A DNA stretch of 15,556 nucleotides from a virus. Its lineage: Duplodnaviria > Heunggongvirae > Uroviricota > Caudoviricetes. Of this stretch, positions 1 through 15,556 are shown piece by piece. The notes beneath the pieces were generated by a model. That model was not told where the DNA came from. It worked only from the letters and a program-made list of their open reading frames with translations, and searched no databases. The translations under genes and the position numbers were made by a program. Where the stretch lies: positions 1 through 15,556 of the IMG/VR virus record IMGVR_UViG_2541047911_000001. The stretch is one strand, 5' to 3'. Within the stretch, counting starts at the first letter, position 1. Each line of letters starts with the position of its first letter.

Positions 1-1254
1 ATGCTGGAACAAATGGGCATTGCCGCGAAGCAAGCCTCGTATAAATTAGCGCAACTCTCCAGCCGCGAAAAAAATCGTGTGCTGGAAAAAATCGCCGATG
101 AACTGGAAGCACAAAGCGAAAGTATCCTCAACGCTAACGCGCAGGATGTTGCAGACGCGCGTGCCAATGGCCTTAGCGAAGCGATGCTTGACCGTCTGGC
201 ACTGACGCCCGCACGGCTGAAAGGCATTGCCGACGATGTGCGCCAGGTGTGCAATCTCGCCGATCCGGTGGGGCAGGTAATCGATGGCGGCGTACTGGAC
301 AGCGGCCTGCGTCTGGAGCGCCGTCGCGTGCCGCTGGGGGTGATTGGCGTGATTTATGAAGCGCGCCCGAACGTGACGGTTGATGTTGCTTCCCTGTGCC
401 TGAAAACCGGTAACGCGGTGATCCTGCGCGGCGGCAAAGAAACCTGTCGCACTAACGCTGCAACGGTAGCGGTGATTCAGGACGCCCTGAAATCCTGCGG
501 CTTACCGGCGGGTGCCGTGCAGGCAATTGATAATCCTGACCGTGCGCTGGTCAGTGAAATGCTGCGTATGGATAAATACATCGACATGCTGATCCCGCGC
601 GGTGGGGCTGGTTTGCATAAACTGTGCCGCGAGCAGTCGACAATCCCGGTGATCACAGGCGGTATAGGCGTATGCCATATTTACGTTGATGAAAGCGCAG
701 AGATCGCTGAAGTATTAAAAGTGATCGTCAACGCGAAAACTCAGCGACCAAGCACATGTAATACGGTAGAAACCTTGCTGGTAAATAAAAACATCGCCGA
801 TAGCTTCCTGCCCGCATTAAGCAAGCAAATGGCGGAAAGCGGCGTGACGTTACACGCAGATGCTGCTGCGCTGGCGCAGTTGCAGACAGGCCCCGCGAAG
901 GTGGTGGCGGTTAAAGCCGAAGAGTATGACGATGAGTTTCTGTCATTAGATTTGAACGTCAAAATCGTTAGCGATCTTGACGATGCCATCGCCCATATTC
1001 GTGAACACGGCACGCAACACTCCGATGCGATCCTGACCCGCGATATGCGCAACGCCCAGCGTTTTGTTAACGAAGTGGATTCCTCCGCTGTTTACGTTAA
1101 CGCCTCTACGCGTTTTACCGACGGCGGCCAGTTTGGACTGGGGGCGGAAGTTGCGGTAAGCACACAAAAACTCCACGCGCGCGGCCCAATGGGGCTGGAA
1201 GCACTGACCACTTATAAGTGGATCGGCATTGGTGATTACACCATTCGTGCGTAA
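1..1254 (+). CDS. proA: gamma-glutamyl phosphate reductase (glutamate-5-semialdehyde dehydrogenase), complete 417 aa
   Basis: Full-length ORF from ATG at 1 to TAA at 1252-1254; translation recognisable as enterobacterial ProA; host-like codon usage. Confidence 0.95.
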
Positions 1255-1368: not shown

Positions 1369-1444
1369 GCCGATATAGCTCAGTTGGTAGAGCAGCGCAT
1401 TCGTAATGCGAAGGTCGTAGGTTCGACTCCTATTATCGGCACCA
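1369..1444 (+). tRNA. thrW: tRNA-Thr, anticodon CGU
   Basis: 76-nt sequence GCCGATATAGCTCAGTTGGTAGAGCAGCGCATTCGTAATGCGAAGGTCGTAGGTTCGACTCCTATTATCGGCACCA folds as a cloverleaf (acceptor GCCGATA/TATCGGC, anticodon loop TTCGTAA, T-loop GGTTCGA, CCA end); lies directly after proA as thrW does in E. coli. Confidence 0.9.
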
Positions 1445-1610
1445 TTCTAACGTCTCGCCAAGTCTACTCAAGTATTTAAAAACCTCTTATAATCCGCATG
1501 TTAGCGCCCCTTTTAGTCTTTTGACGTCTACTTAAGTACCCCAAAATCTACAGTCAATTGGGGGTACTTTTGGGGGTATTTGCTGTTCGGTTTAGTGGAG
1601 GTACCCCCAA
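1428..1610. repeat. attL: tRNA 3' end core plus integrase-upstream region, repeated at 15049-15217
   Basis: TCCTATTATCG (1428-1438) recurs at 15049-15059; the following ~165 bp (1445-1610) is near-identical to 15061-15217 with a few substitutions and one ~12-bp deletion in the second copy. Confidence 0.8.
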
Positions 1611-2825
1611 GTGAAACTCAATGCCCGTCAAATAGACACTGCCAAGCCAAAAGAGAAGGCTTACAAGCTGGCTGATGGTGGTGGTCTGTATCTCTTGGTA
1701 AAACCTAGTGGAGGAAAATATTGGCGCTTCAAGTATCGTGTAGCTGGTAAAGAGAAGCTGTTAGCACTAGGTGTGTATCCTGAAGTTACCTTGGCTGATG
1801 CTCGTGCAAAACGTGAAGAAGCTAAAAGGGGTATCGCTGGGGGTATCGATCCGATGGAAGCGAAACGAGAGGAAAAGATTGCCCGGGAAACGCAGTTAAA
1901 CAACACCTTCAAAGATATTGCCCTTGAGTGGCACAGCAGCAAATTAAAAAAATGGTCTGCTGGTTATGCTTCAGACATCCTCGAAGCCTTCAACAAAGAT
2001 GTGTTCCCTTACATTGGCAAAAAACCAATCGCCGAAATCAAACCACTTGAACTGCTGAATGTGCTGCGGCGCATCGAGGGGCGCGGTGCTACCGAAAAAG
2101 CCAAAAAAGTGAGGCAGCGATGTGGGGAAGTTTTCCGCTATGCAATTGTCACTGGACGTGCTGAGTATAACCCTGCACCGGATCTCACCAGCGCGATGCA
2201 AGGTCATGAATCTAATCATTATCCTTTCCTCACAGCCAAAGAATTACCTGATTTTTTCAAGGCATTGTCCAGTTACTCAGGAAGTGCATTGGTTGTTATG
2301 GCGGCTCGTTTACTGATTATCACCGGTTTGCGGACTGGCGAACTGCGCGGTGCATTATGGGATGAAATCGATCTCAACAAGGCTATCTGGGAGATACCTG
2401 CTTCACGGATGAAAATGCGTCGCCCTCATGTAGTGCCTTTGTCTGAGCAGGCTCTTTCGCTTATTGGGCAGATTAAAGAACTAACTGGCAATTATCCGCT
2501 TATGTTTCCCGGCCGTAATGATCCAAGGAAAACAATGAGCGAGGCTAGCATAAACCAAGTATTTAAACGCATCGGCTATAACGGAAAGGTTACTGGTCAT
2601 GGCTTCCGGCACACTATGAGCACCATTTTGCATGAGCAGGGCTATAACACCGCGTGGATAGAGACACAGCTTGCGCACGTCGATAAAAACTCAATTCGTG
2701 GCACATACAACCATGCGCAATATCTGGATGGGCGGCGGGAAATGCTTCAGTGGTACGCTGATTATATGGATTCGCTCGAGCATGGCGGAAATGTGGTGCA
2801 TGGTGAGTTCGGAAAATGCGGGTGA
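1611..2825 (+). CDS. int: P4-type tyrosine integrase (site-specific recombinase), 404 aa, GTG start
   Basis: Starts 167 bp after the tRNA; GGAGG Shine-Dalgarno at ~1596-1600; N-terminal MKLNARQIDTAKPKEKAYKLADGGGLYLLVKP is typical of P4-family integrases; C-terminal region carries catalytic-type residues (…HGFRHT…, …LAHVD…, …RGTYNHAQY…). Confidence 0.9.
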   Translation: MKLNARQIDTAKPKEKAYKLADGGGLYLLVKPSGGKYWRFKYRVAGKEKLLALGVYPEVTLADARAKREEAKRGIAGGIDPMEAKREEKIARETQLNNTFKDIALEWHSSKLKKWSAGYASDILEAFNKDVFPYIGKKPIAEIKPLELLNVLRRIEGRGATEKAKKVRQRCGEVFRYAIVTGRAEYNPAPDLTSAMQGHESNHYPFLTAKELPDFFKALSSYSGSALVVMAARLLIITGLRTGELRGALWDEIDLNKAIWEIPASRMKMRRPHVVPLSEQALSLIGQIKELTGNYPLMFPGRNDPRKTMSEASINQVFKRIGYNGKVTGHGFRHTMSTILHEQGYNTAWIETQLAHVDKNSIRGTYNHAQYLDGRREMLQWYADYMDSLEHGGNVVHGEFGKCG

Positions 2826-2953
2826 CTGGTTGAGTATACAGTAGTAGACTTTGAGCGACGAAAGAAAAGGCTGTGTCTAGGGTCGCTCCCGAAAATCCGT
2901 ACACCTCGACGGACTGGTACAGCCACTACAGTAGAGGACGCTGAGGTGTGCGT

Positions 2954-3751
2954 ATGATTGATATTCATGCCGAATTAAACGAATACAAAAAAGATTTTAT
3001 TTCTTTACGTGAATTTCTTGAGGTCGTGCTTAAGGTCGCTGGTGATGATTATGATGTTTCAGATGTCATAACTTGGATACTCAGGAGAATAAGCGGAGAA
3101 CATATCCGCCTGTACACAGTAAATGAATTTAAGCTGTTGGAATCTTTTTGTAACCCGTATCGGGATGAATTTGATAATGATGTTCTTTATAGAAATCTGA
3201 ATGCGGTTCGGAAACGTGGTTGTTTACCTGGTGAGAGGGATGAAAATGGTTTTCTGGTGTCCGGTTATTGGGAAGATCCCGAATTTGAGAACATTGGATT
3301 TATAAGGGGTGAAATTTTCGCAATTTTTCCCGATGTCCTTGACGCGTTAACGAAGCTGGAAGGCGCTAACTCTTCTGAAAATGACGAGGCACAAGGACGC
3401 GATATTGAAAAGAAAGAGTTGCGTACAGAGGATGATTTATTATCCCAAATCGCAATGCTGGAAAAAGAAAACGCAGAGTTAAGGGCAAGGATAGAGCAGT
3501 TAGAGCAAGAGCGCCCGATACACTTATATAAATACTGGGATAAAGACCCATTAGCTAAGGCTATTGAGATTAGAAACAGAGAGTGGGCCAATTACGATCC
3601 AGAAAATGATTTTGCCACCAGGGGAAATCAAGAAGCGATAACCAGGGAGCTTAAGCAGTGGGGGGCAAGTAATGCACTTGCAACGCTCATAGAGAGGACT
3701 GCCTGCCCTATTAACCGAGACAACAGCCAAAAGAACGCAAAGCCGGATTAA
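2954..3751 (+). CDS. hypothetical protein, 265 aa, acidic with a coiled-coil/leucine-zipper-like segment; possible accessory gene
   Basis: ATG at 2954 preceded by GAGG (2944-2947); the ORF track starts it at the in-frame GTG 2948. Visibly lower GC than the flanking int. Coiled-coil-like segment LLSQIAMLEKENAELRARIEQLEQE. No family recognised. Confidence 0.6.
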   Translation: MIDIHAELNEYKKDFISLREFLEVVLKVAGDDYDVSDVITWILRRISGEHIRLYTVNEFKLLESFCNPYRDEFDNDVLYRNLNAVRKRGCLPGERDENGFLVSGYWEDPEFENIGFIRGEIFAIFPDVLDALTKLEGANSSENDEAQGRDIEKKELRTEDDLLSQIAMLEKENAELRARIEQLEQERPIHLYKYWDKDPLAKAIEIRNREWANYDPENDFATRGNQEAITRELKQWGASNALATLIERTACPINRDNSQKNAKPD

Positions 3752-3766
3752 CGCACCATACCGCAT

Positions 3767-3909
3767 ACCCTGAGGGTGATTTACTGTTACCCTGAGGGTA
3801 TTTTTTTATCTTCCCCGTCAATTTTACCATCACCCTTAGGGTAGATTTCCTCCCGATTACCATCACCCTTAGGGTAGATTTCCTTCCGGTAACCATTAGG
3901 CCTGAGGGT
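3767..3909. promoter_or_regulatory. Array of five ACCCT(G/T)AGGGT palindromes, including a perfect 25-bp direct repeat, upstream of the alpA-like gene
   Basis: ACCCTGAGGGT at 3767-3777 and 3789-3799; ACCATCACCCTTAGGGTAGATTTCC at 3826-3850 and 3859-3883 (33-bp periodicity); GCCTGAGGGT at 3899-3909. Confidence 0.55.
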
Positions 3910-3978
3910 ATGAAAATATTCGTTATTTCTGTGCCATGATTACCTCGTCAAATTGAGTAGACGTTATGAGGTAAATAT

Positions 3979-4176
3979 ATGTCAAATACGCTTATTCGTT
4001 TAACAGAAGTTCAGCGTAGAACTGGATATAGCAAGGCATGGATTTATCGCCTTATGGGGCAAGGTAAATTTCCTGCATCAGTTAAAATTGGCTCGCGAGC
4101 TATTGCTTTCGTTGAGAGTGAAATTGACGAGTGGATTAATCAGCGTATTGCGGAATCACGCGGAACAGCTACCTGA
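3979..4176 (+). CDS. alpA: AlpA-family small HTH transcriptional regulator (prophage regulatory protein / excisionase-like), 65 aa
   Basis: Translation MSNTLIRLTEVQRRTGYSKAWIYRLMGQGKFPASVKIGSRAIAFVESEIDEWINQRI matches the AlpA/Xis-type pattern; GAGG Shine-Dalgarno 7-8 nt upstream; int-proximal position typical of P4-like and PICI islands. Symbol denotes family membership only. Confidence 0.75.
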   Translation: MSNTLIRLTEVQRRTGYSKAWIYRLMGQGKFPASVKIGSRAIAFVESEIDEWINQRIAESRGTAT

Positions 4177-4253
4177 TTAAATGGCTACGGGGCTATTGCC
4201 CCCAGCTATCCACCAGCAAATAAAAGTAACTTAATTCGATAGCAGGAGTTTTT

Positions 4254-5054
4254 ATGAAATTTCCAAAAATGCCCGTACAGGGGCGGGGCTTCGTTCGGCC
4301 TGAAAACCAGAATCTGCAAAATCTCGGCGAAATTATCCCGATTATTTCCGGCGTTATTGGCGGGAGTGAAACCAATATTGTTAGTGCCAGAGCGTTACAT
4401 AAGGCGTTAGGTGTAGGGCGCGTTTTCCGTTCGTGGATCAAGGGGCGCATTGAAGAATACGGCTTCACGGAAGGCGTGGATTATGAGGTTGTTGAATATT
4501 TGAGCCGACCCGATCCGGTGAGCGCAAAATCTCGCCAGCAAACAGCTCTTGAGTACATCATCACCGTGAACATGGCGAAAGAACTGGCGATGGTCGAACG
4601 TACCGAACAGGGCCGCGCCGTTCGCCAGTACTTTATCAAATGCGAGGAGGAGCTACACAAGGTTGCGCCTGTTCGTTCCGCAGCGTTACGCCGGGAACTG
4701 AAAGCCCGTATCACAGTTGCCAGCTACTTTAAGCCAATGTGTGCCGCGCTGGAGGCGTACCGGGCTGAACTGGGTAAAAACACACTCCAGCACCACTACA
4801 CCACGGAAGCGAACATGCTGGCGCGTATCGTGCTGGGTGGCATGACTGCAAAACAGTGGGCACTGGCGAACGGCATTACAGGCGAACCACGCGACCACAT
4901 GAGCACGTTGCAGCTTGAGCACCTTTCTTACCTTGAGCAGAGCAATATCACGCTGATTGAGTTAGGCCAGGACTACCACCAGCGGAAGGCTGAATTAATT
5001 CGTCTTTCGCAGCGTTGGTTAGCCCGTCGCATGGAGGAAAACAGCCATGTGTAA
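4254..5054 (+). CDS. AntA/AntB-like phage antirepressor-domain protein, 266 aa
   Basis: CAGGAG Shine-Dalgarno before the ATG; N-terminal region (…SARALHKALGV…FRSWIKGRIEEYGFTEGVDYEV… and …TALEYIITVNMAKELAMVERTEQGRAVRQYFIKCEEEL) resembles the AntA antirepressor N-terminal domain; C-terminal half unassigned. Confidence 0.6.
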   Translation: MKFPKMPVQGRGFVRPENQNLQNLGEIIPIISGVIGGSETNIVSARALHKALGVGRVFRSWIKGRIEEYGFTEGVDYEVVEYLSRPDPVSAKSRQQTALEYIITVNMAKELAMVERTEQGRAVRQYFIKCEEELHKVAPVRSAALRRELKARITVASYFKPMCAALEAYRAELGKNTLQHHYTTEANMLARIVLGGMTAKQWALANGITGEPRDHMSTLQLEHLSYLEQSNITLIELGQDYHQRKAELIRLSQRWLARRMEENSHV

Positions 5055-6354
5055 CGCTCTGACCGTTACAAAAAGAGAAAGCGCCCCGTTGCCGGAGCGC
5101 CTTTGTGAACGAATAGCCTACTGCGCCATATTGCTTACTGTCTACGAGGCAGATTATAGCGTTGTGGTCGCACAGAGTGAAGGCGCTGATCACCGTTACT
5201 ACAGCACGCCAGAAATGCAGAATATTTTGCTGCAAAATGTCGTTGGTCACACTGTCCGGAAAGCAAAAAATTTTGCTGGTGGCGCGACTGATGCGATTTT
5301 GTCAGGTCGCCAGGTGCTGATCAATCTGATGTCTGATTTCGTTCTGGATAAAACAAAGGCGACCGCAGAGGGCCGCCAGTGGGAAAGCTACATACTTGAA
5401 CGCATCGCCAACAATGCCAGATTTGCGGCTGGTGGGCAATGTGTCAGCTTTGCACCAATGACTCTATGTTTAACTGAGGGTCATTATGGTGAATATGCTG
5501 GCTTGCTGGTGGGCTATTCCTGCTCTTTAACATTGCCATGCCGCGATGTTTTACAGGTATGCGACCCCATTTTTGTGCGCCTGTACTCTTTAAGGAATTT
5601 CTCAAGGATAAACGCACAGGGCGCGAATCTGTTTGACTCATGCTCGTACGCTATCTTTCTGCGCTGTCTTTTCCGTGCCGGTGATGGTGTATTGGTTGAT
5701 TCTTTGTTGGTCATGGCGCAGCCCTGTAAAACGATGCACCGTAGTTCCTCACACCACGGCGCTGGTGATGGTTACTCCTGTTCTTTGGCCTTGCGGCGCT
5801 GGCGGTATTCAACTTCTCGCTTTAATGCTGCTGTTACAAACTGCCCTGTACTTTCACCAGGCATTTTTACCGCCTCAACATTGTTCATAACTTCATGCGG
5901 AACCCTTGCCGCAACTGTTTGTGATTTTGCGTTTACTGCTTTTGTCGCCATGTTGTGTACCCCTTACAAAAAACAAATGCAGTATGCAGGAAAAAAAATA
6001 AGTGTTCAACACTTGACGTGTTTAACACCTGGGCTTAAATTGGTGTTCAACACCTTGTTGATGCAAGGTGCAGAAACGACAACGCCCCGCAGTGGTGGCA
6101 CACATGCAGGGCGTCTAACCACCAACGATAGCAAGAGTATCGAGGTAGCTATGAGAAATCATACCACACACCCGCAAGGGCGGGACTCGCACAACCTGAA
6201 TAAATACATCTGGCGTTTTATCGCCCTGAGCACGGCACAACCGCGCGTAATTCACATCGAGGCCACCAGCGAACAGGAAGCACGCCAGCAATCTCCTGAT
6301 GGCTGCGTGATGGTATTCGCCGCCCGTATTCGCCAGGAGGTGGAACATGTGTAA
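5047..6354 (+). CDS. Long ORF (435 codons) of doubtful integrity: plausible gene start at 5047 with a protein-like first ~140 codons; the central part is probably not coding
   Basis: Start is translationally coupled to the upstream gene (ATGTGTAA overlap, GGAGGA Shine-Dalgarno). Codons ~150-370 are Cys/Ser/Thr-rich with many rare codons (AGG, ATA, CGG, TTA) and overlap an antisense gene and an operator cluster. Only the last ~67 codons look coding again. Confidence 0.3.
   Translation: MCNALTVTKRESAPLPERLCERIAYCAILLTVYEADYSVVVAQSEGADHRYYSTPEMQNILLQNVVGHTVRKAKNFAGGATDAILSGRQVLINLMSDFVLDKTKATAEGRQWESYILERIANNARFAAGGQCVSFAPMTLCLTEGHYGEYAGLLVGYSCSLTLPCRDVLQVCDPIFVRLYSLRNFSRINAQGANLFDSCSYAIFLRCLFRAGDGVLVDSLLVMAQPCKTMHRSSSHHGAGDGYSCSLALRRWRYSTSRFNAAVTNCPVLSPGIFTASTLFITSCGTLAATVCDFAFTAFVAMLCTPYKKQMQYAGKKISVQHLTCLTPGLKLVFNTLLMQGAETTTPRSGGTHAGRLTTNDSKSIEVAMRNHTTHPQGRDSHNLNKYIWRFIALSTAQPRVIHIEATSEQEARQQSPDGCVMVFAARIRQEVEHV
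5772..5951 (-). CDS. Ribbon-helix-helix-like small DNA-binding protein (59 aa), candidate repressor, antisense to the long ORF
   Basis: Minus-strand ATG at 5951, stop TAA at 5774-5772; translation MATKAVNAKSQTVAARVPHEVMNNVEAVKMPGESTGQFVTAALKREVEYRQRRKAKEQE has a strand-helix-helix pattern and host-like codons; AAGGGG Shine-Dalgarno upstream; divergent from the operator cluster at 6002-6053. Below the 60-aa cutoff of the ORF track. Confidence 0.5.
   Translation of the reverse strand: MATKAVNAKSQTVAARVPHEVMNNVEAVKMPGESTGQFVTAALKREVEYRQRRKAKEQE
6002..6053. promoter_or_regulatory. Three 11-bp palindromic operator-like sites GTGTT-N-AACAC overlapping a rightward promoter-like TTGACG-17-TAAATT
   Basis: GTGTTCAACAC at 6002-6012 and 6043-6053, GTGTTTAACAC at 6018-6028; -35-like TTGACG 6013-6018 and -10-like TAAATT 6036-6041. 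Confidence 0.55.
6151..6354 (+). CDS. small hypothetical protein (67 aa); likely the real first gene of the rightward operon (3' end of the long ORF)
   Basis: ATG at 6151 with GAGG 5-8 nt upstream, about 100 bp downstream of the operator/promoter cluster; ends …IRQEVEHV with an ATGTGTAA overlap into the next gene. Confidence 0.4.
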   Translation: MRNHTTHPQGRDSHNLNKYIWRFIALSTAQPRVIHIEATSEQEARQQSPDGCVMVFAARIRQEVEHV

Positions 6355-6571
6355 TGCAACATGGCCTGATGCAGCGGTAGACGCTATCAAAACGCTGATG
6401 GATTCACTTATTGAGATTTCTGCTATCGCTGGTGTGGCGCATAAACACGCAGCCAGAGAATCAGAATGCATCTCCCATTATTTAGCATTTGTGCAGCTAA
6501 AAGCCGATCAGGCACTGGATAAGGCCGGAAAAATTATCATGGCTGATGTGCAGGAGGTGCACCATGCATAA
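6347..6571 (+). CDS. small hypothetical protein, 74 aa
   Basis: AGGAGG Shine-Dalgarno ~8 nt upstream; start overlaps the upstream stop (ATGTGTAA). Confidence 0.5.
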   Translation: MCNATWPDAAVDAIKTLMDSLIEISAIAGVAHKHAARESECISHYLAFVQLKADQALDKAGKIIMADVQEVHHA

Positions 6572-6929
6572 CCTGTCAATTTCTGACCTTAACAGCATTC
6601 AGTTTGACGAGAAATTTACCGGGCAGTTGCTGGTCAATGTGGAGAACGGGCGCATAGTGCGTAATTACCACCTGCCGGATGGTGCAATTGCCGGAAGCGT
6701 TGAAGCATTGCTGGAACTGGCGGAACGTGCGCGACTGATTAAGCCGTCAACGAGCCATCACGATGATGATCTGCATTTTACCGGGCGTATGGTGAGTCAC
6801 TACGAAAACGGCGTTGAAGTATCCCGCGAACGGCTGCGTGATGATTGCTGTTTCGGCACACTGCCGGAATTTATCGAGTTGCTGACCAGTTGCGGTTATC
6901 AGGTCATTCAGGGGGGTAAACATGCGTGA
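6564..6929 (+). CDS. hypothetical protein, 121 aa (MHNLSISDL…)
   Basis: ATG at 6564 preceded by GGAGG and overlapping the upstream stop (ATGCATAA); preferred over the track's 6546 start, which would place the Shine-Dalgarno inside the coding region. Confidence 0.55.
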   Translation: MHNLSISDLNSIQFDEKFTGQLLVNVENGRIVRNYHLPDGAIAGSVEALLELAERARLIKPSTSHHDDDLHFTGRMVSHYENGVEVSRERLRDDCCFGTLPEFIELLTSCGYQVIQGGKHA

Positions 6930-7155
6930 TGATCGTTTTAATTCCCTGAAACGGGAATTTGATGGCGCACCGGAAGATGCAGCGGGCGCATTGTTGAGCG
7001 TTGCTGACATGATGAAAGCTGCATATTTTCTTATCAATACCAGTGGCTACAAGTCAGAGGGTGAAATGATTCTTAGTATTGCGTCGGACTATGCGGAATA
7101 TGTGGCAGAGACGCGTTACAGAAGAAAATTCACGGAGGATGTAAGCCATGCATAA
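6922..7155 (+). CDS. small hypothetical protein, 77 aa
   Basis: ATGCGTGA start/stop overlap with the upstream gene; G-rich Shine-Dalgarno. Confidence 0.5.
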   Translation: MRDDRFNSLKREFDGAPEDAAGALLSVADMMKAAYFLINTSGYKSEGEMILSIASDYAEYVAETRYRRKFTEDVSHA

Positions 7156-7348
7156 TCATGAAGCGCATGTACCCGTAGTGCTTAATGTGCCAGATGATTT
7201 CACCGGACGCGTACTGGTTTACCTGGATAAAGGGAAAGTGAAATCACAATGCCGACTGAAAAGTAATGAGATTGTTGGTTCTCCTGAATTTTTTTCTGAA
7301 CTTTGTATTCGTGCGGAAATAAAACCGGAACTGCTGACAGGAAAATAA
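7148..7348 (+). CDS. small hypothetical protein, 66 aa
   Basis: ATGCATAA overlap with the upstream stop; GAGGATG Shine-Dalgarno. Confidence 0.5.
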   Translation: MHNHEAHVPVVLNVPDDFTGRVLVYLDKGKVKSQCRLKSNEIVGSPEFFSELCIRAEIKPELLTGK

Positions 7349-7352
7349 AACC

Positions 7353-7643
7353 ATGAAAAAGAAAAATTCTGGCTTTACTGCCAGCGGCCTCTCTCGGCCT
7401 GAAATCCGCCCCGGTGATATTTTCCGGGACACCAGACGCGGGGGACGGGTGGTTATTCGTCACGTTACGCCAGGCAATATCACCTACCGCCGTGAGGCTT
7501 ACGAATATGACTGCGTAATGCCGCGCCGTCAGTTTGATCGTGATTTTATTGTGGTGGAAAACAAACAACAGGCAGTGGCGAGACGTGCAGCCACGAATAT
7601 TAAAAAAATCCGGGCAATGTTGGTTGCGGGAGGTAAGAAGTGA
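7353..7643 (+). CDS. small basic hypothetical protein, 96 aa
   Basis: AGGAAA Shine-Dalgarno; Arg/Lys-rich; stop overlaps the GTG start of the replication gene. Confidence 0.5.
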   Translation: MKKKNSGFTASGLSRPEIRPGDIFRDTRRGGRVVIRHVTPGNITYRREAYEYDCVMPRRQFDRDFIVVENKQQAVARRAATNIKKIRAMLVAGGKK

Positions 7644-9445
7644 AAAACGCACCGAGTCTAAAATATCAGCCGAAGGATAAATTCACTGAGGTAATCATTT
7701 TTGCCGGGATGGATGCTTACGCCCATGCTCAACACTGGATTGAAAGTGAAGGACGAAAACACGGCGATAACGTGCCTCCTGTTTACCTGGGACCAAAGCA
7801 ACTGGCAGACCTGGCGAATATCCGCATTATTGACGAGAAACGCCGTTTTGCGCGTGTCTATATCGCGGGGGAGATAGAGCCAATCCAGATCAATACTATC
7901 GCTGAAAAGCTGGCGCTGGCTGGCGTACAGGAGGCGAAATTATACAAAGGTATCACCGACCAGGAACCGGAGAACTGGCGCGACTACCTGCAACGGATCC
8001 GCGAACAGGCTGAGCACGGGGAAGTTTCAGTGATGAAATTAGCTACAAAAAATAGTGGTCTACCCAAGCCTGCATTAAATCAGATGGGAGCCAGCCAGAG
8101 AGGGGAAGTGTTACTTGAACATTATGGAGGAGCACTGGCGATAAATGATGATTCTGATGTAGTTCACCATTACAACGGAATTGTTTGGGAGCCTGTATCT
8201 GATAAGGAACTCCAGCGGTCTATGGCGAAGATTTTTATTGATGCCGAAATTAGTTATTCGCAAAACGCCATTAAATTTGCCGTAGAGACAATGAAATTGA
8301 GTCTACCTGTTATGGGGGGAGCGGACAGAAATCTTATTGGGTTCAGTAACGGTGTTTTTGATATCAGGACAGGAAATTTTCGGGAACACAACAAAAATGA
8401 CTGGTTGTTAAATGCCAGTGAATTACCGTTCAGCCCGCCAGAAGAGGGGGAAACGCTGGCAACACATGCGCCGAATTTCTGGAAGTGGTTGCGTCGTTCG
8501 GTGGCGGATAATGCTCGTAAAGCGGATCGCGTACTGGCGGCATTATTCATGGTACTGGCGAACCGGTACGACTGGCAGTTATTCCTTGAGGTAACGGGGC
8601 CGGGCGGAAGCGGTAAAAGTGTGATGGCGGAGATTTGTACCATGCTGGCGGGTAAGGCCAATACAGTATCGGCGAGCATGAAGGCGCTGGAAGACGCGAG
8701 GGAACGAGCGTTAGTGGTGGGATATTCTCTGATTATCATGCCTGACATGACCCGCTACGCAGGTGATGGTGCTGGGATTAAGGCCATTACAGGCGGTGAC
8801 AAGGTGGCTATCGATCCGAAACACAAAGCGCCCTATTCCACGCGCGTTCCTGCGGTAGTGCTGGCAGTAAACAATTATGCCATGTCATTCAGCGACCGTA
8901 GTGGGGGGATCTCGCGTCGACGAGTAATATTTAATTTCTCTGAGGTTGTACCAGAGAACGAACGCGATCCGATGCTGGCGAAAAAGATAGAAGGGGAACT
9001 GGCAGTAGTGATTCGCCATTTGCTTACACGATTTGCCGACCAGGACGAAGCGAAAAGACTACTTTATGAGCAGCAAAAATCAGAAGAAGCACTGTTGATA
9101 AAGCGTGAAGGTGATTCGCTGGTGGACTTCTGCGGTTATCTGATGTCGTTGGTTAAATGTGAGGGAATGATAGTAGGTAATGCAGAAATAGTGCCATTTA
9201 GTCCGAGGCGATATCTGTATCATGCTTATTTGGCTTATATGTCTGCGCATGGTCTGGGAAAACCGGTATCACTGACACGCTTTGGTACAGATATGCCAGG
9301 GGCAATGGCTGAGTACGGAAAGGAGTACAAGCGGGCTAAATGCACTAAAGGTCCAGATAAAGGGCGAACGATCACAAATGTTCTGTTAGATAAAGATGCT
9401 GATGGATGGTTACCAGCAACGGCAGGCATTAACGACAGAACATGA
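7640..9445 (+). CDS. P4-family primase/helicase-type replication protein (P-loop NTPase, SF3-helicase-like), 601 aa, GTG start
   Basis: Walker A GPGGSGKS and a downstream hydrophobic-run-plus-Asp Walker B candidate (…LIIMPD…) are visible; size, position (followed by iterons) and architecture match P4 alpha C-terminal or PICI pri-rep proteins; no obvious zinc-binding primase motif. Confidence 0.8.
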   Translation: MKNAPSLKYQPKDKFTEVIIFAGMDAYAHAQHWIESEGRKHGDNVPPVYLGPKQLADLANIRIIDEKRRFARVYIAGEIEPIQINTIAEKLALAGVQEAKLYKGITDQEPENWRDYLQRIREQAEHGEVSVMKLATKNSGLPKPALNQMGASQRGEVLLEHYGGALAINDDSDVVHHYNGIVWEPVSDKELQRSMAKIFIDAEISYSQNAIKFAVETMKLSLPVMGGADRNLIGFSNGVFDIRTGNFREHNKNDWLLNASELPFSPPEEGETLATHAPNFWKWLRRSVADNARKADRVLAALFMVLANRYDWQLFLEVTGPGGSGKSVMAEICTMLAGKANTVSASMKALEDARERALVVGYSLIIMPDMTRYAGDGAGIKAITGGDKVAIDPKHKAPYSTRVPAVVLAVNNYAMSFSDRSGGISRRRVIFNFSEVVPENERDPMLAKKIEGELAVVIRHLLTRFADQDEAKRLLYEQQKSEEALLIKREGDSLVDFCGYLMSLVKCEGMIVGNAEIVPFSPRRYLYHAYLAYMSAHGLGKPVSLTRFGTDMPGAMAEYGKEYKRAKCTKGPDKGRTITNVLLDKDADGWLPATAGINDRT

Positions 9446-9473
9446 TACGAAATTTATAAGTTGAAACTTAAAA

Positions 9474-9809
9474 GTAGACGGTTGGTAGACAGATACACTT
9501 AACCCTCTACCAACCATCTACTAATTAATGTTTTGAATTATATAGGTATTTTTAATGTGGTAGAGAGGTGGACAGTTTATTTTATATTTCTAAACCACGG
9601 GGGTATCTAAAAATAGATAGTTATGGGTTCATTTTTAAAATTTTTCTTTTAACTATCTACACTGTCTACCATTTAGTAAAAGTCATTAATTATCAATGTA
9701 TTAATACTGTAGAGAGTTGGTAGACAGTTTGCAGATTGTTTTTTTGTTATGTATTAATAACATTAAATAAATCAAACAATTATATCGGTAGACAGTTGGT
9801 AGACAGTTG
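9474..9809. repeat. Origin-like AT-rich region with multiple GGTAGACAGTT-type iterons in both orientations
   Basis: GTAGACGGTTGGTAGACAG 9474-9492 with inverted partner CTCTACCAACCATCTAC 9505-9521; GTGGTAGAGAGGTGGACAGTT 9557-9577; ATCTACACTGTCTACC 9655-9670; CTGTAGAGAGTTGGTAGACAGTT 9707-9729; GGTAGACAGTTGGTAGACAGTTG 9787-9809; A/T-rich spacers, e.g. 9620-9650. Confidence 0.65.
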
Positions 9810-9814
9810 TAACG

Positions 9815-10357
9815 ATGGGGCAAAGCATGACTAAGCTGACCATTAACAGAAAACCGAAAGGCATTTACGGCACGCCGCAGAAAACGACGCAGGCGGCGCA
9901 GGAGCAGGATAAAACCACATCGGCGCATAAAGTGATGCCCGGTAACCAGAAAGCGCAGCAAAAGCCCACAGGGGCGACACCGTGGCGGCATATGACCAAA
10001 CGCCAGCGCAAAAACCGCAGGCGCGTTAACCGCCTCACTGAGTTGTGGCCTGACTTATTCAGCCGGGAAGCACCGAAGCCGCTTAAGGTGGGGATATTCG
10101 ACGACCTGATGCAGGATCTCGCCGTCAGGGGGCTGGCATTCGGGCCAGGGGCATTGCGTGCGACGCTGGCATCTTATGCGCAGTGTCCGCACTATTACCG
10201 CGCCTTAATGGCTGGTGGGGTACGCTACGACCTGAAAGGCCAGCCGTGCGGCGAGGTGACACCACAGGAACAACAGGACGCAGAAACGCGGCTGGTGGCG
10301 CTGAATGAGAAGCGCAAACGCCAGCGCCGGGCAGCAAAGGAGACAATAGGCGCATGA
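9815..10357 (+). CDS. ProQ/FinO-domain RNA-binding protein with a basic N-terminal extension, 180 aa
   Basis: Residues …LWPDLFSREAPKPLKVGIFDDLM…LRATLASYAQCPHYYRALMAGGVRYDLKGQPCGEVTPQEQQDAETRLVALNEKRKR align by eye with the E. coli ProQ N-terminal FinO-like domain (…RPLKIGIFQDLV…[35 protein letters not shown]…); an alternative start at ATG 9827 is possible. Confidence 0.75.
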   Translation: MGQSMTKLTINRKPKGIYGTPQKTTQAAQEQDKTTSAHKVMPGNQKAQQKPTGATPWRHMTKRQRKNRRRVNRLTELWPDLFSREAPKPLKVGIFDDLMQDLAVRGLAFGPGALRATLASYAQCPHYYRALMAGGVRYDLKGQPCGEVTPQEQQDAETRLVALNEKRKRQRRAAKETIGA

Positions 10358-10641
10358 TTCACGACAGCAAAGCGGAAGCACTGGAAGCGCGTGGTCTGTA
10401 CCGGAGAGCGGCGGCGCGGTGGGCTGAGGTCATCATGCTGGCGAATGATGACAAGGCACGGGAACAGGCGGCAAAACGTCGCGCGGAATGTATCCACAAG
10501 GCAGCACGCCCACCAGCAAAGCAGGATAATTTCGGGGAGATGCGCGAAACCATCAGCCGGGCACATGCCGGAATGGGATTACATCAGCCCAATGGTAAGG
10601 CATTCAGGAAATATCCTGGATCGAAAAATTGCAGTCAGTGA
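10354..10641 (+). CDS. PerC-family-like small transcriptional activator candidate, 95 aa
   Basis: Start overlaps the upstream stop; N-terminal MIHDSKAEALEARGLYRRAAARWAEV resembles, from memory, the conserved start of PerC/Pch-type proteins of prophage-like elements; tentative. Confidence 0.45.
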   Translation: MIHDSKAEALEARGLYRRAAARWAEVIMLANDDKAREQAAKRRAECIHKAARPPAKQDNFGEMRETISRAHAGMGLHQPNGKAFRKYPGSKNCSQ

Positions 10642-10644
10642 CGG

Positions 10645-10672
10645 AGGCCGGGATTTTTCCCGGCCTTATTGC
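10645..10672 (+). terminator. Rho-independent terminator-like hairpin after the perC-like gene
   Basis: GGCCGGG (10646-10652), loop ATTTTT, CCCGGCC (10659-10665), followed by a T-rich tract. Confidence 0.55.
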
Positions 10673-10751
10673 ATTTCATTAATTGCAATATTTATTGCTA
10701 TCATTTCATTTTGTGCAATTGTTGTGGTTGTTATTATTCGGGAGAAAAATC

Positions 10752-10919
10752 ATGAAAGGTCACGGAGTAAAGCCAGTTTTACTTTCCCGGAGGCAGATTG
10801 AAGCCCTGCAACGTATCCAGGACGAAGAGCGTCAGAAATCTGTGCTTGGTGTGGCGCCGTCGATTCATGTTATTGCCCGGCAACTGATGGATAAGGCACT
10901 TAAAGAGGTGAGACTGTGA
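10752..10919 (+). CDS. small hypothetical protein, 55 aa, possible DNA-binding regulator
   Basis: ATG at 10752 with GGGAGAAAAA Shine-Dalgarno; the ORF track's upstream start at 10683 lacks a ribosome-binding site and runs through the promoter region; translationally coupled to the next gene. Confidence 0.45.
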   Translation: MKGHGVKPVLLSRRQIEALQRIQDEERQKSVLGVAPSIHVIARQLMDKALKEVRL

Positions 10920-11188
10920 AATTAAATATCAGAGTGGATAAACGCCAGCTATGGCAGAAAAAAGAGAACAGCGAGGCATTCAGGGCGTTGCTGGTGGAAA
11001 ATCTTCAGCACCGGTTCAGTGGAGAGTTGCCTGATGCTCTAGGGAAGAAACTTGAATCCCTGACGGTGGAAATTGGCGATTATGGCTTTGTTGATGTTGA
11101 AAGCACGACTGCCAACACAGAAATCGTAAAACAGGTCGTCAATGATGTAATGAAAACCACGCTTAGCCAGCCATCCTGGCGCAACTGA
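10916..11188 (+). CDS. hypothetical protein, 90 aa
   Basis: GTGA start/stop overlap with the upstream gene; no family recognised. Confidence 0.5.
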   Translation: MKLNIRVDKRQLWQKKENSEAFRALLVENLQHRFSGELPDALGKKLESLTVEIGDYGFVDVESTTANTEIVKQVVNDVMKTTLSQPSWRN

Positions 11189-11287
11189 ATCAGTAAGGGG
11201 CGGTTATTGCCCCTTTCCTCCATACCCACAACGCATTCCCTTTCCGCATGAAATTATTTTTTATCGTATACGCATGAGGTGAGCTAC

Positions 11288-11815
11288 ATGTTGATGAGTA
11301 AAGCCGAATACGCCAAATACAAAGGCGTAAGCCGCCAGACAGTTTACGACTGGATCGAGAAAGGCGAAGTGATCATGTCTGGCAAAAAAATTGATGTGGA
11401 GGCGACAGAGCAGCGGAACAGCCCACCGGCACAAGGGAAAGACACCGTTTCTGAAATGTGGCCAGAAAGAACGCTGGAAATGACGTGGGGCGAGTTCTGG
11501 AAAGCAGTTAAGGCCAGAGACGGTAAAATTCCTTCGCCAGTAACGGACGATGACATACAGCAGCGTGTGCTGTATGCAGCCGGGGAATTAGGCTGGGAAG
11601 TGCACTTTCTTGATGATGGTGCTATCTGCCTTGAGGATGATGAAGGGCAGCATTACTTTGAAAAATACAATTTGCGAGGTAATGCCAGGCTGGCAATTCG
11701 TATGCTGCGTTGCGAACTCTGCTATGTTGCAGGTGATTATCCCGATGAACTGGAATCATGGAGTGAAACCGGGCTAAACGCCCTGGCTGAATGGGAAAAA
11801 TCAGACCATCAATGA
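11288..11815 (+). CDS. HTH-domain protein, 176 aa; candidate small-terminase-like / packaging-redirecting DNA-binding protein
   Basis: ATG at 11288 with GAGGTG Shine-Dalgarno 9 nt upstream (track uses GTG 11279); N-terminus MLMSKAEYAKYKGVSRQTVYDWIEKGEV is a winged-HTH pattern like the lambda Nu1 N-terminus and the AlpA/MerR class; followed immediately by a repeat array. Confidence 0.55.
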   Translation: MLMSKAEYAKYKGVSRQTVYDWIEKGEVIMSGKKIDVEATEQRNSPPAQGKDTVSEMWPERTLEMTWGEFWKAVKARDGKIPSPVTDDDIQQRVLYAAGELGWEVHFLDDGAICLEDDEGQHYFEKYNLRGNARLAIRMLRCELCYVAGDYPDELESWSETGLNALAEWEKSDHQ

Positions 11816-11818
11816 CAT

Positions 11819-12023
11819 CAAAAAGTGTCAAGTTGAGCAGCTTGCCAGGTTGACACTTTACACTCTGAACGCGAAAAAGTGTCAACCTCGCTGTAAACCC
11901 CGCCGTTACTGGCTTTGCGCCAGATTTACCACGTCAAAAAACCGAAAAATCGCGAAAAGTGTCAAGTTGCCATGCTTAGAAATGCTAAGGTTTGATAAGG
12001 TTTTTCGCGAAAAAGTGTCAACC
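11819..12023. repeat. Four direct copies and one inverted copy of (CG)AAAAGTGTCAA(G/C): candidate packaging (cosB-like) or regulatory site
   Basis: Direct copies at 11821-11833, 11874-11887, 11955-11969 and 12010-12022; inverted copy TTGACACTTT at 11850-11859. Confidence 0.5.
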
Positions 12024-12053
12024 AGCCCCCTAAGATTTCCTAAGGTGTAAACC

Positions 12054-12233
12054 ATGACCATCACCGAAGCCGATTTGCTGGAGATGATCCGCAGCATTGC
12101 CGGAATCAAACAACCAGCAAGCAAAATTAACAGGTGTTCAGCGCCTGTTTCCGTTGTGCTGCAACAGGAACGCCACCAGCATGATGATGTGAGGCCGTAT
12201 CAGTGGCGGAAACCGAACAGGCTGCGACGGTGA
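12054..12233 (+). CDS. possible small ORF, 59 aa, upstream of the cargo gene
   Basis: ATG at 12054 with AAGGTG 7 nt upstream; just under the ORF-track cutoff; hairpin-plus-T-run at ~12273-12296 downstream; coding status uncertain. Confidence 0.3.
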   Translation: MTITEADLLEMIRSIAGIKQPASKINRCSAPVSVVLQQERHQHDDVRPYQWRKPNRLRR

Positions 12234-12673
12234 GCGGGGCGTTATAGTAAGCCAACAGCCAAGCCAAACATTAAGCCTAAGGGTAGGGCTTTTTTGTGGC
12301 TGGTGGCGTAATGCCAACATTGTTACATGATGTTTTGAGGTATTATCTGCATGTTCGTGGTGAGGAACCACCAGAACTGATGAGCTTTTGTTTATGCATG
12401 TACTGCATGAAAACTGTCCTATAAAGTGGGGGTAGGTGTGCTGAGGAGAACATTGTGAGCTACGCCAAATTAAATTGTGTCGGGGGTGAACAAGTTTCTT
12501 GATAGGTGTCAGTAGGCACCTATAGTTATAGGCTTCTTCAATTTTGTGTGCACAATATTTTGTATTGATTGGGGATAGGGTTGCACGCAAAATTAAAAAA
12601 TGTATATTTATTAACGTGTATTTGATGATTTTTAAAAAAAATATTTCTCTATGTTTATCATAAAAGGTTTTTT

Positions 12674-14272
12674 ATGAGCGTGGCAATAAAAACAATGACA
12701 CCAATGTCATATTCTATAAAAGTTGATGCGATTAAGAAAAGATTGTCATATTTTAGTGATGTTTCTTTTTTGAGAAATTTTTATGAACACTTCCAAAAAG
12801 TAAGGGATGTCGAGGTGGGTATTGTTTCCAATTTCCCTTGGTGTTGCTATCTGGCAATGAAATGGAAGTTTTGCATGAAGGAAAAAAAGCCTGCAAAAGA
12901 AATGAGTAAAAATGATTTTATTGATATTATCAACTTAATCTATAACTTGCAACTAGAAGCATCTAATTTAATCGTTGATGATAAAGTTATGCTAAGCCTT
13001 AGACGAATGGTGATAAATCAGTTGCTTTATCAATCAACTGATAAATTTAATGCTAATTCATTAACAAGACAGTATATTTGGTATTGCTTGAATGATGAAT
13101 CATATTATAAAGATAAGTTTTTAGAATGTACTGGTTTACATTTGGAAAGCTATTACAAAATGGCATGTTATTTTACTGCTATTTCATGTATTAATCCTGA
13201 TGTAGAATCAGAGGTTATTCCATTTAAACACTTGATAATAAACTTGGTTCCGATATTTGGTCCGGAACAAGTGAAAAAATTTTTGGAATTAACATGCTTA
13301 AAAATTGATGGTGTAAGAGATTTTATTGCCCCATATAAATTGGATAAAAACATTACCGCTGAGTATTATGAAGATACACCATTCCTCAGTAAACCAATGT
13401 TTTTAGATGGCGATGGTGTAGTGATATTATGCAAAAGAATCATGAAGTCAGGGTTTGTCAACCTAGTTCCAGAATTGTTCAAGCAGGTCTATAAGGAATC
13501 TTATAAAGAAAAATTTGGTAAGACGATGGAACTTTATATTTCTCGCTTTCTTGATAAGTACAATTATAACTTTAAGACTGAAAGGGAGGTTAAGAAGATT
13601 TATAGTGATAATGCAATAAAAAATTGCAAGTCCGTAGATTTTGTTATTTCAGAGGGAGATTCAATAGTTTATATTGACTCGAAGGCAATAGAGCCTGCAA
13701 AGTTCGTTAAAACATCTAATAATGCTCAGTTGCTAAAGGAAAGGTTGAATAAGAGTTTTATTAAAGGGATTTATCAAGGTCAGGAATGTGCTTTTAACTT
13801 AAATAAAATAGAGATGAGAAAACCATCTTCGAAAGATTCAATGTTAATTGTGGTGCATCGGGATCATCATATATCAAATGCAATGGTTGTGCAGGATTTT
13901 ATTAACCCTGATTTATCAACTGAGTTATCTGAAAAATATCATAGTACCCCCATTGATCTAAAAAGAATTTACTATATAACAATTGATGAGTTCGAATTAT
14001 TACTTATGATGTGTAAACAGAAAGAACTATCTATTAATGAGTTTATTGATATGTGTGTGGAAAAAGATTCATTCCCTCATACTCAGAAGTCTAATCTAAG
14101 CATGCACATATATGAATTTGCACCAGAGGGTATTGATGATGATCAATTGATTGTAAAAGGAAGAGACTTACTGATTGATGATGTTATTGAAAATATGAAA
14201 GAGAGTGCATCAAAATGGTCTGGGAAAGTTGATATGTATCTTAAAATAAAAGATTATATTTTTAATTGGTAA
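12674..14272 (+). CDS. AT-rich orphan protein of unknown function, 532 aa; candidate anti-phage defence / abortive-infection effector with a possible PD-(D/E)xK-like core
   Basis: Long uninterrupted ORF with a composition very different from the rest of the island; AAAAGG Shine-Dalgarno 8 nt before the ATG; AT-rich promoter-like leader; perfect hairpin downstream; last gene before attR. Confidence 0.8.
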   Translation: MSVAIKTMTPMSYSIKVDAIKKRLSYFSDVSFLRNFYEHFQKVRDVEVGIVSNFPWCCYLAMKWKFCMKEKKPAKEMSKNDFIDIINLIYNLQLEASNLIVDDKVMLSLRRMVINQLLYQSTDKFNANSLTRQYIWYCLNDESYYKDKFLECTGLHLESYYKMACYFTAISCINPDVESEVIPFKHLIINLVPIFGPEQVKKFLELTCLKIDGVRDFIAPYKLDKNITAEYYEDTPFLSKPMFLDGDGVVILCKRIMKSGFVNLVPELFKQVYKESYKEKFGKTMELYISRFLDKYNYNFKTEREVKKIYSDNAIKNCKSVDFVISEGDSIVYIDSKAIEPAKFVKTSNNAQLLKERLNKSFIKGIYQGQECAFNLNKIEMRKPSSKDSMLIVVHRDHHISNAMVVQDFINPDLSTELSEKYHSTPIDLKRIYYITIDEFELLLMMCKQKELSINEFIDMCVEKDSFPHTQKSNLSMHIYEFAPEGIDDDQLIVKGRDLLIDDVIENMKESASKWSGKVDMYLKIKDYIFNW

Positions 14273-14276
14273 TTAA

Positions 14277-14304
14277 GCAAGGGTGTTATTATCAACACCC
14301 TTGC
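14277..14304 (+). terminator. Perfect 11-bp-stem hairpin after the cargo gene (terminator-like; no strong T-run)
   Basis: GCAAGGGTGTT (14277-14287), loop ATTATC, AACACCCTTGC (14294-14304). Confidence 0.5.
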
Positions 14305-15048
14305 TCATAGTCTTACAATATTAAATGTTGTGTTTTTTATTTATATATTTTATTGCCCGTCAAGCTATTAATTCATCTCGTTGTTTGAGATAGGTTGAGC
14401 ATTTGTATTTTTTTATCAATTTTATCTGTATGAGCTTAAGCAGCTTCAATAATATCTGCGTTAAATTACGCTTCATTCAGAGACGTGCTTGCTATTGACA
14501 TGTAATCCATGTGCAACAAGATTCCTGCCATAACTTATGCGTTTCAGAGCCGAATCATGGACTGCTTTAAGTCATTTTTGTAGGGAAAACATGTTCACAT
14601 GTCAGCACTGATTTGTTTCATCACATATCCACTATCTCGAATTCCTGTGTCGATAGATGAATGCAGACGGAAATATGTAAATTTTGTGCACGCTCTGCTA
14701 TTAAGCGAAAACGAGCGTGGGTATATCAACTAATAATTGCCCTCATTAACATAGGTGGTGGCGGGTATAATCTCTGTAACCCAGTTGTTCGTGACTACCC
14801 ACCTCGTCAAATTTTCACACCCGCGAAATAAAAAATACTTCACGCTAGTGGTTATCCTTGGGCATCCACCAGCCCTTCATCATTGCCTGCCGGTGAGGCT
14901 GAGGCTCGAAGAAAAAGAGTGCTAGATAGTCGATTTTTGCCTGGTTTGGGATAAGGGAAAATTTATTGGGGGTACTTTTGGGGGTATCTATAAAAATGAA
15001 ATATGAAAATATCATTAAATATCAATGTATTTGTTGTTTATGTTTTGT

Positions 15049-15217
15049 TCCTATTATCGCCCATTCTAACGTCTCCCCAAGTCTACTCAAGTATTTAAAA
15101 ACCTCTTATAATCAGTATATTAATGCCCCTTTTAGTCTTTTGACGTCTATTTAAGTACCCCAAACTCTACAAGCAATTGAGGGGATTTGCTGTTCAGTTT
15201 AGTGGAGATACCCCCAA
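15049..15217. repeat. attR of the first island / left junction of a second tandem island
   Basis: TCCTATTATCG at 15049-15059 followed by a near-identical copy of the sequence found after thrW at 1445-1610. Confidence 0.8.
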
Positions 15218-15556
15218 GTGAAACTCAATGCCCGTCAAATAGACACTGCCAAGCCAAAAGAGAAGGCTTACAAGTTGGCTGATGGTGGTGGTCTGTACCT
15301 CCTGGTAAAACCTGGTGGAGGAGAATATTGGCGTCTCAAGTATCGTGTAGCTGGTAAAGAGAAGCTGTTAGCACTAGGTGTGTATCCTGAGGTCACCTTA
15401 GCTGATGCTCCTGCAAAACTTGAAGAAGCTAAAAGAGGTATCTCTGGGGGAATCGATCTGATGGAAGTGAAGCGAGAGGAAAAGATTGCCCGGGAAACGC
15501 AGTTAAACAACACCTTCAAAGATATTGCCCTTGAGTGGCACAGTAACAAATTATAA
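15218..15556 (+). CDS. int: Second P4-type integrase, N-terminal 112 codons only; in-frame TAA at the window edge
   Basis: GTG start in the same context as the first integrase; protein closely similar to the first integrase N-terminus with scattered substitutions; TAA at 15554-15556 where the first copy has AAA. Confidence 0.7.
   Translation: MKLNARQIDTAKPKEKAYKLADGGGLYLLVKPGGGEYWRLKYRVAGKEKLLALGVYPEVTLADAPAKLEEAKRGISGGIDLMEVKREEKIARETQLNNTFKDIALEWHSNKL

Follow-up and report, generated by a model that had tools for sequence, protein, structure and literature searches.

Introduction

Integration into the 3' end of a tRNA gene places the newcomer next to the tRNA, and where integrative elements accumulate in tandem arrays at one tRNA gene, the newest element is the one adjoining the tRNA. 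One of the islands found at such a site is the vat genomic island, the core of VAT-PAI (GI-thrW) in avian and uropathogenic Escherichia coli, for which Parreira & Gyles 2003 and Nichols et al. 2016 are said to be the primary descriptions. The genes vat and vatX lie together in a conserved island between proA-thrW and yagU (PMC6592367; PMC6956023).

We analysed 15,556 nucleotides of a Caudoviricetes record (IMG/VR IMGVR_UViG_2541047911_000001), referred to here as the window. The final 500 bases of this sequence form the left edge of the vat genomic island known from extraintestinal pathogenic E. coli. In comparison with that island, the locus has the same proA-thrW/yagU position, the same downstream genes (vatX, vat and an IS1 remnant) and the same truncated integrase, which is present at at least 99% identity in UTI89, 83972, APEC O2-211 and DSM 30083. 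Nothing of substance differs; a 13.6-kb satellite lies between the island and the tRNA, as in about 200 other complete genomes, and the displaced copy of the tRNA end has a private 1-nt deletion. Compared with tRNA-targeting integrases of the P4 family (Arm-DNA-bind_3/DUF4102), the truncated integrase (the stump) has an arm domain 92% identical to that of its intact neighbour and the same position and orientation next to a tRNA-derived core, but it lacks the central and the whole catalytic domain, carries substitutions at invariant residues and appears to be a relic. As in other tandem tRNA arrays, an intact tRNA gene stands at the left, a displaced tRNA end lies between the elements and the related integrase modules share one orientation; unlike in those arrays, there is no third copy of the core at the right, and the distal element is a 7.3-kb unit with the stump at one end and a replacement junction at the other.

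Results

A repeat of the left end of the first island at the right edge of the window

The identity of the ORF preceding the tRNA-Thr(CGT) gene places the integration site at thrW (Table 1). The 3' end of thrW contains the attL core of the first island, a stretch common to the displaced copy and to satellite right ends in other genomes. Global alignment and a repeat finder (families D1 and D2) showed that positions 15050-15553 repeat the left end of the first island (1429-1946), in the same orientation and in the same order, namely the tRNA-end core, an att arm of about 150 bp and 112 integrase codons. The repeat extends over about 500 bp at approximately 90-94% identity (tblastn E 4e-61; blastn 89.7% over 522 nt), which is far beyond chance. 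When the two att junctions were compared, core and arm aligned with a gap of 2 nt in the tRNA-derived core (CCTATTATCGGCACCATT as against CCTATTATCG-CC-CATT) and one of 12 nt at about 15166. Within the reading frame (15218-15553 compared to 1611-1946), 20 of 336 nucleotides and 9 of 112 residues differ, and TAA occupies 15554-15556, where the first integrase reads AAA AAA TGG. The initial annotation had described such a repeat, with scattered differences and a terminal TAA, and had placed two related elements in tandem at thrW; both descriptions agree with the alignments and with the positions of thrW and the displaced tRNA end. A scan of 14200-15556 for promoters and terminators gave nothing above shuffled expectation, and two ORFs without support (15268-15549 on the minus strand and 14966-15154 on the plus strand) were taken as spurious.

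Table 1. Features of the thrW locus in the window (positions in nucleotides from the first base).
Feature	Position	Strand	Description or evidence
proA	1-1254		417-aa ORF just before the tRNA; named proA in annotated relatives
thrW, tRNA-Thr(CGT)	1369-1444	+	ARAGORN; Rfam tRNA, 71.8 bits; tRNA-Thr annotated after proA in relatives
attL core CCTATTATCGGCACCATT	1429-1446	+	Last 16 nt of the tRNA plus TT
Integrase-proximal att arm of island 1	1447-1610	+	TGGGGGTA repeats at 1559, 1571 and 1602(-)
Intact 404-aa tyrosine integrase, island 1	1611-2825	+	Pfam Arm-DNA-bind_3 (3-88), Phage_int_M (100-194), Phage_integrase (206-371)
int-alpA RNA motif	2870-2937	+	Rfam, 45.5 bits (gathering score 35.8); just downstream of the intact integrase
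GapS1-like protein, 532 aa	12674-14272	+	NCBIfam anti-phage GapS1, 442 bits (cutoff 320)
Right-hand att arm of island 1	14950-15049	+	TGGGGGTA pair at 14967 and 14979
Displaced partial thrW 3' end CCTATTATCGCCCATT	15050-15065	+	attR of island 1 and left att of the vat island
Remnant integrase-proximal att arm of the vat island	15066-15217	+	Alignment; motif scan
Integrase stump	15218-15556	+	Codons 1-112 plus TAA from the deletion junction

The stump ends at a junction with the vat region

A look-up of the GapS1-like protein of the window led to contig KE701730.1 (GCA_000460415.1), which matches window positions 2674-15556 with 0 mismatches in 12,883 bases. Given this perfect identity, the contig would represent the window's own genome, and its flank the continuation of the window. 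Beyond the TAA the contig reads TCACAATAATAG... through a 434-bp spacer of 29% G+C, and then into vatX, vat, an IS1 fragment and yagU, with vatX and vat on the minus strand. The vatX product is a MarR-type protein of 174 aa, and vat encodes a serine-protease autotransporter of 1,376 aa with Peptidase_S6 and Autotransporter domains. Over 8 kb, this part of the contig shares 99.6% identity with the vat region annotated in strain K56-43-un. The yagU gene (DUF1440) lies 7.3 kb past the core, so that the vat-vatX pair is bounded by yagU in the contig and by proA and thrW in the window, and the left end of the island is formed by the truncated integrase of 112 codons, where AAATTA joins TAATCACAATAATAG.

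Homology to the first integrase ends at 15553, where AAATTA is followed by AAAAAATGG in the intact gene and by TAATCAC in the stump. Using the intact integrase as tblastn query, we found no residues beyond 112 in about 9.6 kb downstream in KE701730.1 or in 19 kb downstream in K56-43-un, and the C-terminal catalytic domain with its active-site tyrosine was absent from the stump ORF and from all six downstream frames. Because integrase homology stops at 15553 and unrelated DNA follows, the TAA is a by-product of a deletion junction and not a point nonsense mutation.

The truncated form is widespread. The junction was present at at least 99% identity in 542 of 5,426 complete E. coli genomes, all copies listed at this identity being annotated as a truncated pseudogene, and in 543 of 545 copies at at least 95% identity; the nearest full-length integrases are about 91% identical at most (E. 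coli; GTDB, one genome per species). Adjacency to the tRNA was counted with a two-piece chimeric query consisting of the 5' part of the tRNA and the spacer after the TAA. A query of tRNA plus island was abandoned for this count, as tRNA-only matches swamped the identity bands. The stump stood directly beside thrW in 337 genomes, including UTI89 and the type strain DSM 30083, and the remaining junction genomes (about 205) had other elements in between. The window, K56-43-un and 83972 have P4-like satellites there, CT30 has an element whose integrase lies on the opposite strand, and MS8345 has a relative of the latter that carries different cargo. Copies of the vat unit are near-invariant (0-3 differences in 917 bp in most of those sampled), and the DNA of its att arm is 99.4-99.8% identical to thrW-adjacent DNA of UTI89 and many other strains. 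Since the stump adjoins thrW without a satellite in 337 genomes, and a newcomer lands next to the tRNA, the vat island is probably the older resident and the satellite the later arrival. The order implied by calling the downstream unit a second element is thus reversed.

Two further observations concern the occurrence of the island. In CT30, the element with the opposite-strand integrase next to the vat island is 13 kb long (2804-16000 of the locus), and together with the 7.3-kb vat unit it amounts to about 20 kb, the size of the thrW island (20 kb, 41% G+C) given for APEC O1; it may be that 'VAT-PAI', as published, is already a tandem composite. The stump was also found at 99% identity in a 3.8-kb contig (DVIU01000229.1) of a metagenome-assembled genome named 'Candidatus Scatousia', where it is probably E. 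coli contamination.

Two other explanations of the right edge bear on these results. Inside the window the two copies differ at the stop by one base (T15554 as against A), as would be expected if a point nonsense mutation or a sequencing error at 15554 interrupted a full-length integrase that resumes outside the window. The tblastn searches of K56-43-un and of the identical contig rule this out, and both that contig and the 542 genomes continue into unrelated AT-rich DNA, which leaves the idea with practically no probability. Extension past 15556 gave no intact integrase, and the frame never resumes. The earlier description of a decaying pseudogene with an in-frame stop therefore holds as regards the pseudogene; it does not hold as regards a stop within an otherwise present gene, since a 3' truncation has removed codons 113-404. 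It is equally improbable that the second copy is a duplicate made locally from the left end of the first island, for instance during integration. Such an origin would agree with the matching orientation and order of core, arm and integrase 5' end, but the copies are 6-10% different and separated by indels, the stump is also found behind unrelated elements, and the 337 genomes in which stump and downstream vat genes stand beside thrW without the first island rule it out. The unit is a separate element, as initially proposed, rather than a short duplication.

The integrase stump shows signs of decay

The sole Pfam match in the stump was Arm-DNA-bind_3 (PF13356), at residues 3-88, with 83.8 bits compared to 101.2 bits in the intact copy. 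No Pfam match to a Phage_int_M/SAM-like central domain was obtained; the ORF ends at residue 112, and this domain spans residues 100-194 in the intact copy. The missing codons include both the central and the catalytic domains, and RefSeq relatives annotate the stump as a pseudogene of an 'Arm DNA-binding domain-containing protein' that is 'missing C-terminus'. Three of its substitutions (R65P, R68L and P81L) affect positions without variation among full-length relatives (64 of 64, from many enterobacterial species), and position 36, which is always basic (K/R), is Glu. The codon changes private to the stump comprise 8 non-synonymous and 7 synonymous-type changes; for comparison, the ratio is 7:27 in a distant intact relative and 3:20 between two intact lineages. 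By codon position, the differences between the stump and the neighbouring copy divide as 6/5/9. This pattern of change looks like decay. The lack of central and catalytic domains, together with substitutions at invariant residues of the arm domain, argues that the stump is a non-functional relic.

A different view is that the stump has been kept as a functional protein consisting of the arm domain alone, acting either as a decoy or architectural factor that would bind arm-type sites held in common with incoming thrW satellites and modulate the integration or excision of the latter, or as a local regulator. The domain is complete and is closely similar to that of the active integrase next to it, about 10% of complete genomes have the stump, the 112-codon ORF (start codon and entire arm domain) is unbroken in 11 of 12 sampled copies, and small deletions recur at the middle junction of tandem arrays. 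Conservation of the ORF is uninformative, however, because the non-coding flanks are equally conserved, which points to recent common descent. In addition, residues that are otherwise invariant are substituted and the charge at position 36 is reversed, the non-synonymous/synonymous ratio exceeds that of intact relatives about 5-8-fold, a frameshift interrupts one metagenomic copy at codon 100, and the upstream arm has suffered a 12-nt deletion. We therefore consider a retained function very unlikely and favour a decaying relic, although the stump may have kept some residual DNA-binding role.

In one satellite-plus-vat array (IMG/VR contig L116), codons 20-40 of the stump carry the satellite-type alleles S33, K36 and F40 along with four synonymous sites, which suggests gene conversion between the tandem integrase 5' ends.

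The first island is a satellite carrying a GapS1-like gene

Island 1 occupies about 13.6 kb between thrW and the displaced core. Its integrase, AlpA and primase-helicase genes (Pfam: int, Phage_AlpA and D5_N/DUF5906/Pox_D5) run in one direction next to the tRNA att site, as in P4-/PICI-like satellites, and the first 112 codons of its integrase are protein-identical to those of the thrW-adjacent integrases of K56-43-un and PD23. Among the ORFs tested, which included part of the small ORFs, no Pfam or PHROGs match to P4 Sid, Delta or Psu or to PICI packaging genes was found, and 11279-11815 gave a weak small-terminase-like match.

The GapS1-like gene occupies the last cargo slot of the satellite before attR. 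In related satellites the same slot holds a methyltransferase, DUF262 and a HEPN nuclease (MS8345) or AbiE (L094). Between the primase-helicase gene and a ProQ-like gene, at 9473-9808, lie three copies of iteron-like repeats (GTAGACAGTTGGTAGACAG) with an inverted pair at 9473-9522, and these may mark the replication origin of the satellite. The 435-aa ORF at 5047-6354 (+) has as its sole family match an Icd-like cell-division-inhibitor/repressor-like C-terminus (residues 347-435), and this Icd-like part is annotated as a separate partial pseudogene in K56-43-un. Two tandem 33-bp copies with 94% identity are found at 3824-3889, between a 267-aa ORF and alpA.

Arms, cores and small deletions at the att junctions

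Exact copies of TGGGGGTA, comprising those given for the satellite arms in Table 1 and one at 15209(-), are clustered in both att arms of the satellite, and a scan allowing up to one mismatch found 27 sites compared to 8.85 expected. These repeats are candidate arm-type binding sites of the integrase. In several genomes the right-hand arm is conserved at the right end of the satellite, and the DNA that follows differs among them.

The displaced core in the window lacks 2 nt of the tRNA copy and 1 nt of the usual satellite attR. The latter reads CCTATTATCGCACCATT in 8 of 13 satellite right ends, one G fewer than in the tRNA, and the window core has a further, private 1-nt deletion (CGCCCATT). 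Other deletions in the core were found in K56-43-un (6 nt, at 18749), 83972 (16 nt, at 15994) and the non-vat locus L093 (3 nt, at 12376). Three of the four small deletions are at vat-island junctions, or three of five satellite-plus-vat arrays as against one of eight satellites in other contexts, the numbers being small. In the 8 loci with the usual form, attR reads CCTATTATCG-CACCATT, and the tRNA reads GGCACCA. A crossover within CACCATT would fit these attR sequences, and one further to the left would fit the single-G form seen in a tRNA context in two contigs of the viral collection. Speculatively, satellite excision may be impaired in the window strain if the deleted base is part of the overlap.

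In those two IMG/VR contigs (L102 and L112) the acceptor stem of thrW itself lacks one G (...TATCGCACCA); L102 then continues into the vat island, and L112 ends ahead of the junction. The single-G thrW may reflect either a scar left when a satellite excised or an error of assembly.

No right-hand att site found for the vat island

A search with the 17-nt core, allowing up to 3 mismatches, gave no match to a right-hand att core in 18 kb downstream in K56-43-un. Compared to genomes without vat, a stretch of 7.3 kb, running from the core to a point about 500 bp upstream of yagU, takes the place of either 93 bp or a region with a LysR fragment and paoABCD. Judged on these alignments, the right end of the island is a replacement junction and not an att site. 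At the left, the 12-nt deletion in the arm collapses two direct TGGGGGTA repeats, a pair that stands at both ends of the satellite. The initial annotation had suggested that the downstream element might depend on the first integrase in trans; with no right-hand att core detected, a replacement junction at that end and two TGGGGGTA motifs lost from the arm, mobilisation in trans is unsupported. The vat island looks fixed in the chromosome rather than mobilisable.

Just upstream of yagU, K56-43-un has the C-terminal remnant of a different tyrosine integrase (25968-26111, minus strand; ...VRRYAHLAPNHL...). This remnant is found with and without vat, and also next to attR in L096, and seems to be a more ancient relic on the distal side of the thrW site.

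Discussion

We propose that the right edge of the window is the left boundary of the vat island, marked by a decayed integrase stump, that this island is fixed and that the satellite was inserted later at thrW; we put the probability of this reading at about 0.92. In the history that we envisage, an old element with a P4-family tyrosine integrase would have integrated into the 3' end of thrW. Everything in this integrase past codon 112, and probably the greater part of the original element, would later have been lost by deletion or replacement, which joined the stump to the AT-rich DNA that leads into vatX and vat; by chance, the three bases that follow the breakpoint are TAA. With the stump a relic and no right-hand att site, the vat island would have become fixed in the chromosome. 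The satellite (int, alpA, primase-helicase and GapS1), whose integrase is about 92% identical to the stump over the shared part, would have integrated later, thrW still having an intact attB, and would have restored the tRNA end at attL and moved the old tRNA end and the vat island 13.6 kb downstream.

A role of the stump in the fate of its neighbour can be imagined, but it is very unlikely. Its arm domain may bind the shared TGGGGGTA repeats and, together with the attP-like middle junction (satellite arm, core and vat-island arm), hinder excision of the satellite. Such interference would account for the different small core deletions in three of five satellite-plus-vat arrays as against one of eight other satellites and, if true, the dead vat island would trap satellites that carry defence genes.

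The feature is already known and annotated, as a decayed pathogenicity-island integrase in a common tandem array, and has little importance beyond correct annotation. For the biology of E. coli, the locus indicates that thrW stays open to new satellites with anti-phage cargo such as GapS1. It offers a textbook case of island fixation through integrase loss combined with tandem accretion, and it would serve as a marker in tracing how the proA-yagU region of B2-type E. coli has changed over time.
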